In this document: piece after piece, positions 1,149 through 63,270 of the stretch
Layout of the letters: each line of letters starts with the position of its first letter
Position numbering within the stretch: the first letter of the stretch is position 1
Source: a virus
IMG/VR virus record: IMGVR_UViG_3300010160_000045
Span: 3,816 to 67,815 of that record
Direction: 5' to 3' (one strand)
DNA length: 64,000 nucleotides
The notes under the pieces: model-generated
Told to the model about the DNA's origin: nothing
Databases searched by the model: none
Seen by the model: only the letters and a program-made list of their open reading frames with translations
Position numbers and translations under genes: made by a program

Positions 1149-4100
1149 TTACTCCTCAGGTGGCGGTGGCAAAATAGAGTTAACCTTATCGTTAAATCTT
1201 TCTGTATCTTTATCTGCATCAATAGAACCTTTTCTGTAAAATTGATACATAGTATCTTTTAATTTGTAGTAATAGTCTTTTAATTTAGACAAATACTCAT
1301 CTCTTTCGTACTTATTTGCATCAAGTTTATTTACAAGTTCAGTTCTTTTATACCCCTCTATTGCATTTGACATATCATTTAACAACTCGTTTGTGTACTC
1401 GTCTTTGGTGTATGCCTTTTTAGTCTTTTTGTTAATTTCCAACCCTCCATCTGCGTCTAAAGGAACAGTAACTTCATTTCTTTTGCTATATGCAAACTCA
1501 ATGCCTTTGCCAATTAGCTTTCTTGTATTGTCTGTGAAATCATCGTACTGCTCATTAGATGGAGAAACAAATGATTCTGATTTTATTGTAGCTAATTGCG
1601 TGCTTTTTCTGCCTACTAAACTTTCTTTGTAGCCTACGCTCTCTACCCACTTTTCTATTTTGGGCTTGTTATCCCTTGAAAACATTGCAATAAAGCCTTG
1701 AACTCCCTCTCTATTTACCTCTGTTGCTTCCAATGGTCTACCCATATAATTAGGTCTTTTATTATCATAAGTCAAACCTGCTAATCCCATTTGCTTTTGA
1801 ACTTTCTCTGACAATGTTTTTGCTTCTTGGTAAGACTTATCTCCTGACAAATATCTTGCTCCTTGTAAACTTTGATTAACAAAACCACTCCACAGCATAT
1901 AACTACCTACGTATGAAATTATATTATTTTCAAGAACATTAAAAAACTTTTCTGTTCCCCCTGTGTAAAGGGCGTACATAAGACTTTGCCTTTCACTCTT
2001 TCCCATTAAGGATGGATTTTGCATTAAACTAAGAACAACCTTATTTCCAGCCTCCGCTATCTTGTCCATTCTTTTGCTTGCTGCGCTATTATAAACTTTT
2101 TTAGGGTCGTCTTTTTTTGTTAAAGCCTCATAAATATTAGCATCTATCCCCATAGCTATACCTAAACCTGCAAGTCGCATCAATGGTATTTTATATCCAA
2201 AAATAGTTAATGTGTTTTCTGCCTCAGAACGCTCTTGGGCAGTTGTGTTTCCGCCTAAGTCATCCTTGCCTACTTTCATACCCTTTATACTCAATCTTTC
2301 TTTCTTTTCTTCTTCTGATTCATCATCATCACCCATATTAGCTATCGCAGCGCCCAATCCATACATTAAAATATTTATAGCTATTGCATTTGCCGCAAGG
2401 CTTTTTGCCTTTTCTTGAACTCTTATTTTGTGCATCTTTTCCTCAACCGTTGTTTCTGGCATCCTTGTTGCACCAATAGCTTTTATAATAGACTTTGACA
2501 GTCCGTATATCAATTCTAATTCAAGTCCTTTCTCATAAACATTTGCTACACCTCTGACAAATGGATACTCAATTTTTGTGTATGCCTCTCCTATTTTATT
2601 TGCAATAAGTTTTGCTGTTTCTTCATTATAGCTTCCCTTTTTGGTTGATAAAAATATAATTCCGTTTACTATTTTATCAATAGCAAACTTAGGAACACCC
2701 AATGATTTTTGCAAAAGCATCCCAGACAATGTGGCTATCCCAAGATTATCCTTCAATTCAGACTTAAAAGTATTTTCATCTGCCTCCATATTTGCTAACT
2801 CCCTCACAATTGGAGGTACTTGGCTTTCTCTTAATATTTCATAAGTTCTTCTTTTTACATTAGCAGGTGTTGGCTTTTTGCCAGACTTTATTACATCTTG
2901 TAATGCTTGTGCATAAAATTCATCAAACTTTGTCTTTTTTAGTGCTTCATTAACAAGAATATCTATTTCCGCTTGTGTGGCATTTGGATTTTGCTTTTTA
3001 AACATTGCATCAAATTCTCCTTTGTCGTAGCTTACAGAAAGAGCTTTCTTAACCATTGCATCTATTTCAGATTTAGTAGCGGTAGGATTTTCTATTTTAA
3101 AATATTTTGCCAAATAAAAAGGGTCATAAGCATCTGTAAACATTTGTTGAAATGTTGCATCGGTTGCATCCAAAACTCTACTTACATACTTACCAGAACT
3201 TATATACTTATTTTTTTTACCATATTCCAATGGTCTAAAATAAGGCATTCCTGTATTATTTACTTCAACACTTGTTTTAGATGATTGATTTATTCCTCCA
3301 CTAAAGAAAATATCATTAAAGTTTCCTTTATTTATACCTTTTATACTTTGAGGGATAAAAGAAAAATTTAATCTTGCCGCCATACCTGTTGCTACTACAC
3401 CTCCTTGACCTGTATTGCCAATTAAATTCGTTAATGCTGTTATAGGTCTTCCCAATAACCCTGCAAACCTTATTGCCGATGCTGTGTCCATAAAAGATAA
3501 AGGTTGCTTAGACGCTATAAAGGCTGTCATTTCTTCTATGGCTTGATTCTTTAAGTTTCCATCTGCTGAATTTTCAACATTTTCAGCTAATTGTCTTGCT
3601 GTTTTCCAGTCGGCTGCGCTCATCATTTGCAACCCCTTGGCAACTGCCAACTCATTTAGTATATCCTCATTGCCATCTTTTAATATACCTAATCTATTTT
3701 CTACAAGTATCTTTCCAATCTTTCCTTGTACTGCTGCTGTTTTCTTTTTAGTTGACTTTTTATCGCTTAACTCTTTTTCTACATACTTATCAGCTATTTT
3801 CTTCCTTTGCTTGTCTATCTCTTGGTCATACTTTCTAACAATAGCATCTAAAACATTTTCTACTTGGGCGTTATCGTAATCTTGTAATTGATTTTTAACC
3901 AACTTTTGAATACTTTCTCTCATTACATCGACATCGCCATTTGCTCCTTCAATTATTTGCTTCCAGTTAACTAACTTGCCATTTCCGTAACCGCTTTGAA
4001 TTAATTTTTCTCTTATTACTTTGAAGATTTTATTTTCAGAAAGTAAATTATCATAAATAAAGTTAGTATAGCCATCAAGATATTCAGTTAAATTATCCTT

Positions 4101-43583: not shown

Positions 43584-43840
43584 AAAACACAGCACTCTTA
43601 AACTCCGAGGAGGAACAGATATACGAAGCCTATACTGTATTAGGAATAGCAGCAGTAAAGGGAATACTAAACTGCAACACAGACACCGCCAATAAGACCG
43701 TAAGGGCAATACTAAAGAAGGTAAGGGAGAACAAAACCTTTGAGGAGAGGCAGAGTGCAAGGTACGACAAGGTGAAGACAGCAATAAGTCAGGCTAAGTT
43801 TGATGGGGAGTTAAGCTATAGAGTTATGTCGGAGGTGTAA
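43580..43840 (+). CDS. Hypothetical protein
   Basis: 86 aa, ATGA-coupled. Confidence 0.6.
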   Translation: MKNTALLNSEEEQIYEAYTVLGIAAVKGILNCNTDTANKTVRAILKKVRENKTFEERQSARYDKVKTAISQAKFDGELSYRVMSEV

Positions 43841-43963
43841 TGTTTTGCGGCTTGGCGATGGCTACGAAGCGTTGGCATTGTGCGGTGGAGTAGCTTGCGC
43901 CAAACCGCTGTTATACGCTGTATTATTTTTTTTGTGCGTGGGCAATTAACCAATTTATAAATT

Positions 43964-44512
43964 ATGAAATTAGACTTAATAACAAACAAAGCTGAAAAGC
44001 AAGGAGAAGTAAATCCAAATGATGAATTTTACACTCCAAATTATGCGATTGAACCGCTATTGAAATACATTAAACCAAGTAGCAACATTTGGTGTCCATT
44101 TGATACACACGAAAGTAACTTTGTAAAATTGCTAATTAAGGCAGGACACAATGTTCATTGGACACACATTGAGGCAGGAATGGATTTCTTTACCGAAGAT
44201 GCACCAGTGCAAACGGATTACATTATTTCAAATCCACCCTATTCATTAAAAGCAGAAGTTTTTGAACGCTTATTTAAATTGGATATTCCCTTTGCAATGC
44301 TTGTTGGAGTGGTAGGAATATTTGAAAGCCAAAAACGATTTACAATGTTCAAAAATAATGACTTTGAAATAATGTATTTTGATAAGCGAATTAGCTATTT
44401 TAAAAGTTACGCAGACCAAAAACCAAGTTTAAATCCACCGTTTTCAAGTGTGTATATTTGCAAAGATTTACTTCCGAAGCAGATTGTCTTTGAAGCGTTG
44501 GCAAAAAAATAA
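43964..44512 (+). CDS. DNA N6-adenine methyltransferase
   Basis: 'DEFYTP', 'IWCPFD', 'DYIISNPPYS'. Confidence 0.85.
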   Translation: MKLDLITNKAEKQGEVNPNDEFYTPNYAIEPLLKYIKPSSNIWCPFDTHESNFVKLLIKAGHNVHWTHIEAGMDFFTEDAPVQTDYIISNPPYSLKAEVFERLFKLDIPFAMLVGVVGIFESQKRFTMFKNNDFEIMYFDKRISYFKSYADQKPSLNPPFSSVYICKDLLPKQIVFEALAKK

Positions 44513-44639
44513 TATTTCTTATAACGTATGGGTATTTGCGCTCGTTTTAATGGCGCAAATACTGTGTTACCTGCTGGTGCGGTTTATTTAGCAGGATTTT
44601 TATTTGTAAACGAAAAGAAAATTTAAAAAGTTTTAGAGT

Positions 44640-45356
44640 ATGAAATATATGGGAAGTAAAAATCGGATAGCAAAAGAAATACTACCGATAATGTTACAAG
44701 AACGAGGACAAAGAACTTGGGTTGAACCTTTTGTTGGAGGTGCGAATATTATTGATAAGGTGCAAGGGGATAGAATTGGTGGAGATAAAAACGAGTATGT
44801 TATTTCGTTATTTAAAGCACTACAAAATGGATGGACTCCACCAAAATATGTGAGTGAAGATGAATATAATAATATTAAAAACAATTTTAAAGACTACGAA
44901 AAACATTTAATTGGATATGTTGGCTTCAATAGTTATGGAGGTAAATTTTTTAGAGGTTATAGGCGAGATAATGAAGGGAAAAGAGATTATTGGACAGAAC
45001 ACTTTAATAACTTACAGAAACAAGTAGAAGTCATCAAAAATGTAGATTTCTTTTGCTGTGATTACAATGAATTGGAAATACCAAACAATTCAATTATATA
45101 TTGTGATATACCGTATGGAGAAACAGAAAAATACAAAGTGAATGGCGTATATGAGAGATTTAATTATGAATTATTTTGGGATTGGTGTAGGATTAAAGCG
45201 AATCAAGGACATAAAATTTTTGTGAGTGAATATAATGCACCTGCTGATTTTGAATGTGTATGGTTGCAAGAAGTATCAAGTAATTTAACTAACAATGATA
45301 AAGGTAAAAAAGCGGTGGAAAAACTTTTTAAATTTTCTCCCACAAATATTCAATAG
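44640..45356 (+). CDS. Dam/D12-class DNA adenine methyltransferase
   Basis: 'MKYMGSKNRIAK', 'WVEPFVGG', 'IIYCDIPY', 'IFVSEY'. Confidence 0.85.
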   Translation: MKYMGSKNRIAKEILPIMLQERGQRTWVEPFVGGANIIDKVQGDRIGGDKNEYVISLFKALQNGWTPPKYVSEDEYNNIKNNFKDYEKHLIGYVGFNSYGGKFFRGYRRDNEGKRDYWTEHFNNLQKQVEVIKNVDFFCCDYNELEIPNNSIIYCDIPYGETEKYKVNGVYERFNYELFWDWCRIKANQGHKIFVSEYNAPADFECVWLQEVSSNLTNNDKGKKAVEKLFKFSPTNIQ

Positions 45357-45459
45357 TAGTAGTATCGTAGCACTTGCAGGTAACTACCGTATATGCGCCA
45401 ATAGTATCGCATATACAACAAACAGTAAGGAGATAAGCGAATAAAAACACACTAATAAT

Positions 45460-57622: not shown

Positions 57623-58358
57623 CGCAGAAGAAAGAGTTGGCTGCTTTTCAGCAAGCAACATATCCCGACTATTGGCAGGTGGCGGTGGTGCTACAAGAAA
57701 GAGTTACATCCTTGAGGTAGCAACCGAGGTTGTCATAGGCAAGAGACCTCAACTTGACACCGCAGCAATGAAGCACGGCATAGCCAACCAAATGAATGCG
57801 TATGAGTTTGTTCTTAAACCTCTCTACAAGGGAGTGCAATGGGTAGACACCTATATTCCCATCAACAAGAATTGTGGTTCAAGTCCAGACTGCGTGTGGT
57901 TAGGAAACTATCCTATAGACATCAAGTGTCCATTTGAGATTGACACCTACCTTGAGCAAATTGAGAAGGTAAAGCCAAGTTACTTTACCCAAATACAAAT
58001 GCAAATCCTTTCAGTAAAGGGAGAGGAGGGCGCACTATGTACATACCTAACAAAGAAGGAGGAATGGGGAAGCGACACTTGGTCAGAGTATCCCTTACCA
58101 TTGGAGGACAGGTTCAGAGTAGAGCCTATCAAGAAGGATGAGGAAACTTGCGATAGGATTCTATTGGCGGTAGAGAAGGCAGCACCCGAAAGAGATTTGT
58201 ATATTGAACTACTTAACAATGCTACTATGATGGATGAGATTGAGTACTTTTACCATCAGATGAAGCACAACAAGTGCAGAGATATAAAGTCTTGCTCAAA
58301 CCTTGAGAAGGCAAACATCATCAGAGTGAACGATAGATTTTATTACAAAGTAAACTAA
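57615..58358 (+). CDS. YqaJ/lambda-exonuclease-like recombination nuclease
   Basis: 'RVGCFSAS', 'AMKHG', 'GSSPD', 'DIKCP', 'YFTQIQMQ'. Confidence 0.8.
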   Translation: MDNAEERVGCFSASNISRLLAGGGGATRKSYILEVATEVVIGKRPQLDTAAMKHGIANQMNAYEFVLKPLYKGVQWVDTYIPINKNCGSSPDCVWLGNYPIDIKCPFEIDTYLEQIEKVKPSYFTQIQMQILSVKGEEGALCTYLTKKEEWGSDTWSEYPLPLEDRFRVEPIKKDEETCDRILLAVEKAAPERDLYIELLNNATMMDEIEYFYHQMKHNKCRDIKSCSNLEKANIIRVNDRFYYKVN

Positions 58359-58362
58359 CATA

Positions 58363-58433
58363 GACCCCACCCAACAAATAGCTACAATGCGCTACATCTG
58401 CGACACGTTAGCATCATTGGGTTGGGGTTTTTT
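58363..58433 (+). terminator. Terminator-like hairpin upstream of the recombinase
   Basis: accccacccaa...ttgggttggggt followed by a T run. Confidence 0.55.
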
Positions 58434-58447
58434 AAAACTAACTAACA

Positions 58448-59167
58448 ATGAAAAAAGCTAAATTATACGCCCGTGTGTCAACAGACAAGCAAGAAAGCAG
58501 CGTTGACCAACAAATAAAAGAACTGCAAGACTTCTGGGCAAGGTTAAATCTTGATGGCTATGAAGTAGAATATCTTATTGATGAAAATGTTTCGGGAGGA
58601 ACTGAGTTATTTGATAGACCACAAGGCTCAAAATTAAAGGACTTAGAAGCCGATAGCATCGTTATTGCATATAAGAAGGAGCGTTTGTTCCGCAATACAA
58701 TAAACGCACTACAAATCGTTTATAAATGGCTTGACGATGGGGTAACTGTTTACTTTATTGAAAATGGATTAGAGCCTCTAAATTTAAGCAATCCAAACTC
58801 AAAGTTTATATTTACAATACTTTGTGCTAAAGATGAACTTGAAAAGGACACAATCGCTTTAAGGACTAAACTTAATATGAAGTTCCGCAAAGAAAATGGG
58901 CGGACATACTCAGCAGAAGTGTTCGGATATGACAACGTAGGTGAGAGGGGAAGCAATGGAAAGATTATTGATGGTAGGTTAGTCGCCAACGAAGACGAGC
59001 AGCAGGTAATAAAACAAATTTTAGAATGGCACAATATTAACATATCCCTTAATGGTATTGCAAGGAATCTAAACGAAAGGAATACTCCCAGCAAGAAGGG
59101 TAAGAAGTGGTCAGCAAAGACCGTAAGGGATACCATCAAGAACACTATCAATTTAGAGAGAGTATAA
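58448..59167 (+). CDS. Serine recombinase (resolvase-family catalytic domain plus a short recombinase domain)
   Basis: 'LYARVSTDKQ', 'DENVSGG...RP', 'ERLFRN', 'FGYD...IARNLNERNTPSKKGKKWS'. Confidence 0.9.
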   Translation: MKKAKLYARVSTDKQESSVDQQIKELQDFWARLNLDGYEVEYLIDENVSGGTELFDRPQGSKLKDLEADSIVIAYKKERLFRNTINALQIVYKWLDDGVTVYFIENGLEPLNLSNPNSKFIFTILCAKDELEKDTIALRTKLNMKFRKENGRTYSAEVFGYDNVGERGSNGKIIDGRLVANEDEQQVIKQILEWHNINISLNGIARNLNERNTPSKKGKKWSAKTVRDTIKNTINLERV

Positions 59168-59250
59168 ATAAAAAAGATATTGTTGATAATTACATTATTA
59201 TTATATTAATTTGCATAACTAATTTAAACACTATAAAAACAAAAAAAACA

Positions 59251-60918: not shown

Positions 60919-61137
60919 ATGACACCAAAAGAAAAATCAGAAGAATTAGTATTAAAATTTTTAAGAATAGAAAATAATACTCCAGAATGGTTTAATACGC
61001 ATATTGCCAAACAATGTGCATTAATTGCAGTTCAAGAAATAATTAACGCAAATCCGCATAGCAATCCATTAACAACTGAAGTTTATTCAACTATGTTATT
61101 TTGGCAAGAAGTTAAAACCGAAATAAACAAACTATGA
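60919..61137 (+). CDS. Hypothetical protein ('MTPKEK..EL...AKQCALIAV.EI' type)
   Basis: Likely start MTPKEK within track ORF 60895..61137. Confidence 0.65.
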   Translation: MTPKEKSEELVLKFLRIENNTPEWFNTHIAKQCALIAVQEIINANPHSNPLTTEVYSTMLFWQEVKTEINKL

Positions 61138-62072
61138 AACAATTAACAGCAGTTGAATATTTGATTAGTGAATTGATGAAATCAAAACATTATCAGCAAA
61201 TGATTAACGAAGTACATCAAAATAGTACAGTAGCAATAGATGTTATTGAACAAGCCAAAGCAATGGAAAAGGAGCAGATGGATAAAGCATTTGATAGTGG
61301 TAGAAATGAGGAAATAAATAAAGGAAGTAAAATATGTTATAAAGTATATGGACTTTATGTTGATGGGCAAGAATTAATTAGGTATATTGGATTTACTAAA
61401 AACAAAATACAAACAAGGCTTAATGAACATACTTCTGAAAGCAAATACTTAAAAACAAAAAAAGATAGATGGATTCAAAAGTATTTAAGAAATGAAAAGC
61501 AAATATGTGCAATAGAACTGGATTCTACATTTGATTTTGAAGAAGTAAAGAAAAAAGAAATTAATTTAATTGCTATGTATAAATCTTGCGGTGCTAATTT
61601 AATGAATGGCACTAATGGAGGTGATGGCTCTATTAATTTTAGACATACGGAAGAAAACAAAATAACTAATGGAATTAGAAAATCAAAAAAGGTTTATTGT
61701 TTTGATTTTAAAACAAAAGAATTAATTGCAGAGTATCCTTCAATAACAAAAATGATAAAAGAATTAAAATTAAGCAAAACATTGGTGGCAAAAGTTTTAA
61801 ATGGTTCAAGTAATTTCCATAAAGATTTTACTTTTTCAAAAGATGGCATTTGCCCTACTCCTTTTACTCCAAAGCATACTGCTTGGAACAAAGGAATATC
61901 AACAAAAGGAACTCAAAGATTTAGATTTACTGAAACTAAATTAGAAAAAGATGGAGAAATTCTTACATTTGAATCTGTAAGTGATGCTTCAAAATTTTTA
62001 GGGAAAAATCATACTTTTGTGATTAAAAAAAGAAAATTAAATCAACCAATAAACGGATATAAAATAATATGA
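61134..62072 (+). CDS. GIY-YIG homing endonuclease fused to a phage small-protein domain
   Basis: 'KVYGL...IRYIGFT...RLNEH', 'E.NLIA.YK..GANL.N.T.GGDG', and NUMOD-like 'KVYCFD...IAEYPSI' and 'FESVSDASKFLG'. Confidence 0.85.
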   Translation: MKQLTAVEYLISELMKSKHYQQMINEVHQNSTVAIDVIEQAKAMEKEQMDKAFDSGRNEEINKGSKICYKVYGLYVDGQELIRYIGFTKNKIQTRLNEHTSESKYLKTKKDRWIQKYLRNEKQICAIELDSTFDFEEVKKKEINLIAMYKSCGANLMNGTNGGDGSINFRHTEENKITNGIRKSKKVYCFDFKTKELIAEYPSITKMIKELKLSKTLVAKVLNGSSNFHKDFTFSKDGICPTPFTPKHTAWNKGISTKGTQRFRFTETKLEKDGEILTFESVSDASKFLGKNHTFVIKKRKLNQPINGYKII

Positions 62073-62500
62073 AATCAGCAATAATAACCCGAATACCACA
62101 AGACAAACAAACGCTGGGCAAGTGGATTAGTTACGAAAATGGCAATGTAATATTTGCTTGTGACACTATCGAACTACCTTATAAGAACAATGCGCCTCAA
62201 ATCAGTTGCATACCAAAGGGTGTTTATGATGTTGTATATCGTGAATCAAAGAAGTACCCAAGACACTACCACATTTTAGATGTCCCAAATCGTGACTTTA
62301 TTTTAGTGCATCAGGCGAACTTTGTAGGCAGTCCTAACCCAAAGACACGCAAACCAGATTTGCTTGGCTGTATTGGTGTAGGAAATGGCTATGGTGACAT
62401 CAATGGAGATGGGATAGTTGAACTGCTAAGGTCAACACCGACATTAAAACGATTGCTGGAGGTTATGGGCAAAGAATCTTTTACACTTACCATAATATGA
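62069..62500 (+). CDS. DUF5675-family putative endolysin
   Basis: 'TLG...CDTIELPYKNN....SCIPKGVY...VPNRDFILVHQAN...GCIGVG', upstream of holin- and spanin-like genes. Confidence 0.75.
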   Translation: MKSAIITRIPQDKQTLGKWISYENGNVIFACDTIELPYKNNAPQISCIPKGVYDVVYRESKKYPRHYHILDVPNRDFILVHQANFVGSPNPKTRKPDLLGCIGVGNGYGDINGDGIVELLRSTPTLKRLLEVMGKESFTLTII

Positions 62501-62682
62501 CACGAAACACACGCTACACGAATGGCAAGGAGGTAATTACTTTCAGCAAGATTGATTTTATAGTTATCGGAGGTCGCAAGATTGACCATGTTTATTTTAG
62601 AAGAAAGGACAAACACGATTTGATAATGCCTTTGGTCGAATGGAATTTAAAAGGTAAATTTGAGTGGGAAATAATTAATTAA
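62497..62682 (+). CDS. Hypothetical protein
   Basis: 61 aa, ATGA-coupled. Confidence 0.55.
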   Translation: MTRNTRYTNGKEVITFSKIDFIVIGGRKIDHVYFRRKDKHDLIMPLVEWNLKGKFEWEIIN

Positions 62683-63000
62683 CGTTCCGATTATTTGCGT
62701 TCGGTGGGGCGTTACACCGCCAAAGATTGTTTAACAAACTAAAGTTCAAAATATGCACACAGATTCAAAAAATCATGAAACCCCCACTGACGCAAATAAT
62801 GTGTTAGTGGCTGGCATTTGTCGGCACTTTAAACATCAAGTTGCGGAGAGGGAATTTTATGTGAACCAAAAAAAGCCATATAGCGGAACAAGAATTATAT
62901 GTTTAAAATGCGGTAAAAACAAGTTTATAAAAGATGCTGAGTATGGTGTCTATGCTTGCCGCTAACTACCTTATATGCGCTACATTTACACGCTTATACA
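62680..63000 (+). mobile_element. Single integron-like cassette with a long attC-like site
   Basis: TAAC 62680, stem 62690-62709/62782-62800, GTTA 62803. Cassette ends gttagtggctggcat and atgcttgccgctaac are inverted repeats. The terminal site matches 45381-45416. Confidence 0.6.
62753..62965 (+). CDS. Small Zn-finger-like cassette protein
   Basis: C-x-H...CxxC. The N-terminus 'ETPTDANNVLVAG' is encoded by the hairpin arm. Confidence 0.6.
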   Translation: MHTDSKNHETPTDANNVLVAGICRHFKHQVAEREFYVNQKKPYSGTRIICLKCGKNKFIKDAEYGVYACR

Positions 63001-63015
63001 ACAACACAAACAAAT

Positions 63016-63270
63016 ATGAAACTAAAACAAAAATACCACGCACCCGACAACCGCCAGTTAAAGAAGATTGCAGATTACTTAATCTACGTTTTGCTGCCAT
63101 TCATTCAAACCAGTTTAGCACTCGCAGAAAGTCAAGGATTAATCACTCTAAAGCAAGCGTTTTGGGGCGGATTGGCAGCTACATTTTTACTGATTAATAC
63201 TAAATTCTTAACTAAATTCACAACCGAAACACCTACTGCCAATGCGGTTATTGATGGTGATGGGTGCTAA
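63016..63270 (+). CDS. Putative holin
   Basis: Basic N-terminus and two transmembrane segments. The likely start is ATG 63016. Confidence 0.55.
   Translation: MKLKQKYHAPDNRQLKKIADYLIYVLLPFIQTSLALAESQGLITLKQAFWGGLAATFLLINTKFLTKFTTETPTANAVIDGDGC

Follow-up and report, generated by a model that had tools for sequence, protein, structure and literature searches.

The window analysed here is a stretch of 64,000 nt of viral DNA (IMG/VR virus record IMGVR_UViG_3300010160_000045, positions 3,816 to 67,815 of that record), given as one strand from 5′ to 3′. At 62680–62806 it contains a 127-base hairpin element, consisting of TAAC, a 6-nt spacer, a 20-nt arm, a 71-nt loop, a second 20-nt arm and GTGTTA, within which a gene of 70 aa begins. 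A reading of the sequence alone had proposed that this element is an attC-like site, with one extra base in its arms, that supplies the start codon and N-terminus of its cassette gene. The features of the locus are listed below, where ORF stands for open reading frame, leader for the residues encoded within the element and body for the remainder of the gene.

62497–62682, + strand: resident upstream ORF, 61 aa, whose stop TAA (62680–62682) is the TAA of the element's 5′ TAAC.
62680–62683, + strand: 5′ core TAAC, R″-like; left limit of the similarity between copies and of the insert relative to empty sites.
62684–62689, + strand: unpaired 5′ spacer GTTCCG, as read from the sequence.
62690–62709, + strand: left arm ATTATTTGCGTTCGGTGGGG, L″-like and non-coding; its core is invariant across 30 copies.
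62710–62780, + strand: loop (variable terminal structure) with an A-rich leader sequence and ATG at 62753–62755; its codons differ among copies.
62781/2–62800, + strand: right arm CCCCACTGACGCAAATAAT, L′-like, coding for ..TPTDANN; synonymous positions are invariant in 30 copies.
62803–62816, + strand: 3′ core GTTA with the cassette-specific extension GTTAGTGGCTGGCA; divergence point of the different body families.
62753–62965, + strand: cassette gene, 70 aa, starting MHTDSKNHETPTDANNVLVAGICRH...; 17 codons inside the element, then a zinc-ribbon-like body.
62954–62966, + strand: cassette 3′ end GCTTGCCGCTAAC, the inverse of the 5′ extension (10/13 complementary), coding for the C-terminal A-C-R-stop.
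62967–63011, + strand: terminal hairpin, element T (TACCTTATATGCGC...CGCTTATACAACAAC...), without a closing GTT and belonging to the insert.
63016–63270, + strand: resident next gene, 84 aa, with two hydrophobic stretches (holin-like by eye); directly after the 61-aa ORF in empty-site relatives.

The gene was laid out as the sequence-only reading had described it. The frame opened by the ATG at 62753 runs through the right arm and GTTA (62803–06, preceded by GT after the arm), and the stop codon TAA (62963–62965) lies inside a second TAAC at 62963–66. The body has a zinc-ribbon-like pattern of C-x-H ... C-x-x-C (ICRH..EREFYVNQK..CLKCGKNKFIKD), and only sub-threshold matches to the 70-aa protein were obtained in Pfam, PHROGs and PDB. 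The 61-aa upstream ORF is also present in the empty-site relatives described below.

The two arms were the top inverted pair in a repeat search (20 nt, 80 % ungapped, 71 nt apart) and pair as perfect helices of 10 bp and 6 bp separated by a small internal loop, the left arm being one base longer. Within the window the 20-nt arm had a single occurrence at three mismatches or fewer, and none of 100 shuffles matched. Taken by itself, the fold of the element was only modestly better than that of shuffled sequence, both as DNA (z = −1.87; 8/200 shuffles equally good) and as RNA (z = −2.27; 3/200), so that the case depends on comparison with other sequences. A chance inverted repeat was rejected on the conservation of the element across contigs, and a known RNA family, tRNA or tmRNA was rejected because searches of the element found none, with no Rfam match at the gathering score (best E 3.9). 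Sigma-70-like sites, the promoter type covered by the scan, were at the level of chance at the element (2 vs 2.3), and no terminator-like site was found there. The Bacteroidota −7 motif TAnnTTTG did not occur inside the element, the nearest instance being at 62655–62662.

A scan of IMG/VR with a degenerate pattern for ..TPTDANNV.. returned 39 loci. Using blastn, the window from 62680 to approximately 62815 was found to recur at 73–93 % identity with unrelated sequence on both flanks, and about 30 full copies of the element were recovered from viral contigs. Copies were distributed across virus records of 2 to 219 kb and six metagenome-assembled genome contigs, five of which were labelled Bacteroidota. 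When 30 copies were aligned, both arms, the ATG and GTGTTAG were invariant or nearly so and the flanks were unrelated; bases left free by the search pattern were fixed too, and the non-coding left arm was conserved as strongly as the coding right arm. The starts of alignments clustered at −1/0 of AAC (252 + 87). The element is conserved, structured and horizontally spread. Since the left arm is equally conserved, synonymous sites are fixed and other elements use another frame or have no start, the peptide is not what selection acts on.

The leader, M..D.K..TPTDANNVL, fronts 26 unrelated body families. Over all loci, 46 occurrences of the element corresponded to 42 unique downstream sequences falling into these 26 families, and 787 of the 836 cross-family pairs diverged no more than 9 nt from the G of GTTA. 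When the 70-aa product was used as a protein query, 22 relatives were returned in which the zinc-ribbon-like core was kept and the N-termini differed, some of them beginning right at the conserved core without a leader. The protein P0023 is identical to the window protein at 20 of the first 21 residues and unrelated over the remainder. The ORFs starting in the element converged at their 3′ ends on ..CTTGCCGCTAAC or a variant, often coding for ..C-R-stop. One leader with unrelated downstream sequences switching at GTT is the pattern for which the sequence-only reading had suggested a search; homology along the full length of the leader-bearing proteins, which it had named as the contrary outcome, was not seen.

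Relatives of the locus, found through its DUF5675 protein, share collinearity with the window as far as 62680/82 and resume it at approximately 63012. Three close relatives (L051, L052 and L058) have nothing between these points, the empty site that the earlier reading had suggested looking for, and other relatives carry unrelated small ORFs at the same insertion point. The window insert comprises site, gene and terminal hairpin, and its left edge lies exactly at TAA|C. Contigs of four lake metagenomes contained the joints 62680→63000 and 62680→63013, metagenome depth over the cassette was approximately 12 or 8 compared with 50–130 on the flanks, and one 335-nt contig consisted of 62679–62966 only; placed at 85 % likeness, these contigs show relatives and not events, with rare joints, circles and transcript ends outside their view. 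The locus therefore displays the discrete presence and absence at a fixed point in collinear genomes by which a cassette is recognized, with a unit that includes the terminal hairpin. A different insert of 155 nt stands at the same insertion point in L050 (2430–2583), containing a GGTTCGATTCC stretch like a tRNA T-arm and a partial end like that of the terminal hairpin.

To count linkage, loci picked by the element itself were used, leaving both sides free to vary. Alignments between loci joined the element to its downstream gene in 30 rows, to its upstream gene in 2 and to both in 3, and 670 rows for this element type covered the element only. L004 and L019 have in common exactly TAAC-site-gene-TAAC and differ in their neighbours. 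Together with the insert edge at TAA|C, the 62679–62966 contig and the position of a recombinase at the 3′ end of related arrays (below), the 30 versus 2 linkage rows favour site plus downstream gene as the putative moving unit, cut at the TAAC cores. The sequence-only reading had incoming cassettes fuse to the leader at GTT. This proposal is partly supported. Exchange at GTTA has occurred, as indicated by the same body being found with different sites, but looks rarer, and as the routine mode of movement it is less likely than the joint transfer of site and gene, which mostly move together. L028 (10300–10960) and L040 (4200–5650) have flanks that are 94–99.7 % identical; behind one and the same half element they carry different bodies, two extra ORFs being a further difference, and the start of an upstream ORF in L028 is fused to the leader. 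A search with the L012 body returned four loci, all already in the set, and only three homologous pairs were found among the 70 cassettes bounded by two detected sites. IS200/IS605-like single-strand transposons recognize a target tetranucleotide and have hairpins at their ends; a transposon of this kind was considered for the flanking TAAC and set aside on the lack of a right-end hairpin and on the gene-specific ends (no transposase search was made).

A structure-based scan of the fetched loci for TAACG...TGTTA hairpins placed the element in a wider family of 122 unique hairpins (100 non-redundant) with length modes at 45–50 and 125–129 nt. The AAC/GTT-type cores were nearly invariant both in the 30 copies and in the 122 family members. 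Arm sequences differed widely across the family, each pairing with its own partner (own-arm duplex energy −17.6 vs −7.7 kcal/mol for foreign arms, with 3/791 foreign pairs attaining the own-arm mean). The 5′ spacer was 5–6 nt in 76 and the 3′ spacer 1–2 nt in 74 of the 100 elements, and the longer arm was the 5′ arm in 36 and the 3′ arm in 25, the arms being equal in 39. For 77 two-site cassettes, the 10 bases inside GTTA were on average complementary to the 10 inside the next TAAC at 6.47/10 positions, compared with 3.47/10 for permuted partners (maximum 4.09 in 2000 permutations). This cassette-end inverted repeat has the form GTTA+N10 ... N10+TAAC around each body. The body in the window is flanked by its own covarying inverted repeat and the whole insert is absent from close relatives. 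Many 125–128-nt elements (L001, L009, L029, L041, L042) carry one or two copies of a loop motif like GTTCAA(A/T)TTAGCAC / ACAAATGTT, which could be protein-binding repeats. L038, a 2,320-nt IMG/VR record classed as having direct terminal repeats, has copies of a type A element at 1–127 and 2207–2320 with four sites between them; either the assembly broke at repeats or the molecule is a multi-cassette circle.

Start codons were largely a property of the long elements. An ATG open through ..NTG|TTA.. (frame 0) into an ORF of at least 45 codons was present in 34 of the 71, a further 20 were open in frame with GTT as a codon (frame 2) and 2 in the third frame, and the remainder mostly preceded genes with their own start; a start codon was found in 2 of the 51 short elements. 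With several frames in use and some elements startless, leader and body must agree in phase. The annotated methyltransferase gp06 of the cultured Flavobacterium phage mumin9-1 begins inside such a site, and matches to an array of L035 were obtained in 13 Flavobacterium phage records and in one uncultured phage. The window's own 3 kb gave no match in the phage collection.

Two more sites, at 43839–43913 and 44522–44569, bound two methyltransferase genes elsewhere in the window. This second cassette locus (43838–45430) runs from a TAAT/TAAC-hairpin-GTTA site through methyltransferase 1, a 48-nt site and methyltransferase 2 to a terminal hairpin. The 48-nt site at 44522–44569 has the loop TCGTTTTAAT, which it shares with several IMG/VR loci and with Polaribacter phage P12002L. 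The closing hairpin at 45385–45430 resembles element T, and both window loci end in such a hairpin without a closing GTT. With three sites and no integrase found, the window qualifies as a cluster of attC sites lacking an integron integrase (CALIN), to which the locus at 62680 contributes one full site and its terminal hairpin. Further cassettes in the window were sought by end pairing alone, which gave no signal (25 pairs vs 13–33 in shuffles) in a crude scan that also missed the real ones.

The strand on which the hairpins fold was assessed from their imperfections. Wobble-type oppositions numbered 179 on the top (sense) strand vs 39 on the bottom strand, and among 305 candidates 97 folded on both strands, 25 on the sense strand only and none on the antisense strand only. 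In the helix that closes each cassette, position 11 (counted from the G of GTTA) is almost always a G opposite T, in 35 of 43 cassettes, and position 10 is a T opposite T in 13, so that the helix has a fixed imperfection. From these counts we infer that the sense strand, as DNA or as RNA, is the folding strand.

Candidate enzymes were found in relatives. Tyrosine recombinases of 270 and 295 aa are encoded beside arrays in L021 and L036 and are 33 % identical to each other (E 5e-41). Hairpin elements were present in five of the ten loci holding relatives of these recombinases, and in those five all elements but one were on the strand of the recombinase and upstream of it, placing the enzyme at the 3′ end of the array. 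In L084 and L090, 60–70 nt separate the last TAAC from the recombinase start, and after this TAAC comes an A/T-rich stretch whose TATA.AACAA-like motif recurs, as a weak likeness, in the terminal hairpins of the window. Integron integrases (IntI) above the curated cut-off were detected in 113 of 401 evenly drawn Bacteroidota genomes (G046–G445) vs 0 of 14 control genomes, and the sites beside these IntI genes were ordinary TAAC...GTTA hairpins of other sequence. The combination that marks a complete integron, an IntI above the cut-off with an attI beside the array, was not found at the phage loci. A 239-aa serine recombinase with a Resolvase domain and part of a Recombinase domain is encoded 3.5 kb upstream of the window element (58448–59167); it is short for a large serine recombinase, and the region 57999–59180 is 91 % shared with L051.

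Taken together, these observations are best explained, with a probability of roughly 0.6, by the window element at 62680–62806 being an attC-like folded recombination site of an integron-like cassette system in Bacteroidota phages that doubles as a translation-start module. Under this explanation, site and downstream gene would move as a unit cut at the TAAC cores, with the sense strand folding. The opposite strand would then read as a classical cassette (gene, then attC) with its gene antisense, that is, as a mirror-image integron with the order enzyme, attI-like end and cassettes each ending in their own site. The enzyme would be a short Xer/IntI-like tyrosine recombinase, encoded at the array 3′ end in some relatives and in the present case either missing from a 44 %-complete record or supplied by the host. 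The leader peptide may have no function of its own, being a by-product of a start codon placed inside the site. We infer this recombination mechanism from comparative sequence evidence. A fuller version, to which we give somewhat less than even odds, is that Bacteroidota phages carry a mirror-image integron of their own, in which a short Xer-like recombinase moves site plus gene and the site serves in addition as the gene's ribosome landing pad, start codon and N-terminus; the other end of the cassette would then code for the C-terminus and stop (..C-R-TAA-C).

Several observations weigh against this interpretation. No tyrosine recombinase (PF00589) was found in the window's own record, which at 67.8 kb is 44 % complete by CheckV, and a PF00589 match was present in just 3 of the 40 virus records carrying the element and in just 2 of the 8 whose completeness is 90 % or higher. 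The recombinases of L021 and L036 score below all named-family cut-offs, the best being NF040815 (186.6 and 174.4 vs 220 bits), and reach 161.6 and 127.3 bits against TIGR02249 (IntI), for which the cut-off is 265. The short-loop site subtype was present in none of 40 Bacteroidota genomes with a bona fide integron integrase. One body can be found with different sites, with its own start or with different downstream neighbours, showing that boundaries were exchanged at more than a single point. In eight unique loci the element is reduced to its right half, with no pairing partner, and one left/right hybrid element was found, indicating that plain recombination inside elements also takes place. 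Finally, the classical top attC strand is marked by the extra base and the longer spacer and is the non-reactive strand; by these marks, its 5′ spacer being the longer one and its left arm holding an extra base, the present element would have its sense strand as the classical top strand, in conflict with the wobble evidence.

Those half and hybrid elements are what would be expected of the alternative that survives best, although we regard it as unlikely: a mobile regulatory or translation module shuffled by ordinary homologous recombination, in the manner of the promoter-stem-loop cassettes (PeSLs) of T4-type phages, which are promoter/terminator motifs shuffled by homology. The hairpin would then act in mRNA, in stability, processing or start-codon display, and the 127 nt would provide homology for crossovers between co-infecting phages without any site-specific enzyme. 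The 670 element-only rows, with similarity independent of both flanks, fit this explanation, as do the G-U-type pairs on the sense strand, the start codon in an open A-rich loop and the lack of a recombinase in most records. It leaves unexplained, however, why each body has a covarying inverted repeat of 10–14 nt abutting invariant GTTA/TAAC, why cores, spacers and total length stay constant despite very different arms, and why arrays stand beside a tyrosine recombinase in five of ten loci. The early promoter and stem-loop terminator characteristic of PeSLs were not found at the element, where sigma-70-like promoters and terminators did not exceed chance and TAnnTTTG was absent. To our knowledge, no PeSL has been described that has AAC/GTT cores, pairs its ends in a gene-specific way, holds a start codon within the site or neighbours a recombinase. 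PeSLs have been the subject of published work (PMC2839356, PMC4122927). As in the present system, conserved stem-loops stand between small accessory phage genes and are associated with modular gene shuffling. The site of P12002L that was recombined by IntI1 (PMC9892861) may be one with the anatomy of the present element, which would count against a purely homologous mechanism.

In a second alternative, considered improbable, the integron has its classical orientation: the element would belong to the upstream cassette, with crossover at G|TT, and bodies would be fused in frame to a resident leader. In its favour, IntI1 cut a P12002L site at G|TTRRRY (PMC9892861). Bodies do switch at GTTA, the same body is found with different leaders, and the 5′ arm with its extra base and longer spacer resembles a classical top strand. 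Against this, the window element follows a resident gene and not a cassette, the insert begins at TAAC, the sites that close arrays lack GTT, the element is linked to the gene downstream of it (30 vs 2 rows) and the recombinase lies at the array 3′ end; moreover, with leaders in two frames or absent, free exchange would often give dead fusions. A protein-level signal, in which the conserved N-terminus is a tag selected for peptide function, as in the capsid-targeting sequence of T4 internal proteins, would account for 21 shared N-terminal residues on many small proteins, but is highly improbable given that residues encoded in the loop are free to vary whereas those encoded in the arm are invariant even at synonymous sites, that the non-coding left arm is equally fixed, that in sister elements the same arm is translated in a different frame or left untranslated, and that relatives of the body start at the conserved core without a leader.

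Integrons are a textbook bacterial gene-capture system, and sedentary chromosomal integrons contain near-identical attC repeats such as the Vibrio VCRs; we know of only a few attC-site clusters reported in phages. The system described here resembles classical and sedentary integrons in serving many unrelated small genes with one conserved site type, in a site of approximately 125 nt, in a cassette-specific core complementary to the inverse core and in single-gene cassettes in one orientation. It differs from classical integrons in that the site precedes its gene and contains the gene start, that a phage is the carrier, and that the cassette-end pairing extends over 10–14 nt and not 7. The array-side enzyme is also unlike theirs, being short and Xer/IntI-like, below the IntI cut-off, at the 3′ end and co-directional with the cassettes. 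A literature search found no description of phage attC-type sites holding the start codon of their own cassette, the supplements of Qi et al. lying outside its scope.

The closest published case is that of Qi et al. (2023; PMC9892861), who describe 17 integrase-less attC clusters in phages, including Polaribacter phage P12002L with two methyltransferases, and in whose assays IntI1 recombined five of six phage sites at G|TTRRRY, one of them from P12002L. The P12002L attC sites of that report are likewise AAC...GTT hairpins between single genes, without a phage integrase and with methyltransferase cassettes. Here, the P12002L sites were found to share the TAACG-stem-loop-stem-TGTTA layout, to carry the TCGTTTTAAT loop of 44522–44569 and to have matching cassette ends (GTTAGGCAC/GTGCCTAAC). 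Two predicted P12002L sites are given in the accessible portion of the report, which mentions no start codons or leaders inside sites (PMC9892861). Beyond it, the present analysis adds a 127-nt family member that holds a gene start and serves 26 gene families across dozens of phage contigs. Site-encoded translation signals are familiar from integrons in another form, a review noting that translation is aided by ORF-11 and ORF-18 of attI1 as well as by short ORFs within attC, and that aac(6′)-Ib is known with fusions to foreign N-termini (PMC8876359). ORF-11 and ORF-18, as described there, are similar in being short site-encoded frames that span the crossover core and aid translation of the following cassette, and differ in acting mainly by translational coupling with a stop in or near the core, whereas the present frame continues in phase, systematically, as a true N-terminus.

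The neighbourhood of the window element bears on one further claim of the sequence-only reading, that the cassette sits inside a lysis module. This context is plausible from the DUF5675 match and from holin-like and spanin-like features recognized by eye. Upstream, a 312-aa ORF at 61134–62072 has NUMOD1/I-HmuI-like domains and is homing-endonuclease-like; relatives L043–45 and L048–51 align to the window only from approximately 62061, so this ORF looks variably present.

The element appears to combine a recombination hairpin with a translation start, one site type being used, across very different phages, by 26 or more unrelated small genes. For annotation, this means that the shared N-terminal residues and the ..CR C-termini of such proteins are site-encoded and are not signs of homology. 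Methyltransferases are among the traded genes, as in the window array at 43838–45416 and in cultured Flavobacterium and Polaribacter phages, and mumin9-1 provides a cultured system for testing. Should the mechanism prove right, it would account for the way in which phages trade small accessory genes and express them instantly. Were the mirror-image integron to prove correct, any captured coding fragment could be expressed without signals of its own, and the system would constitute a capture-and-expression device operating across phages of 34 to 219 kb.

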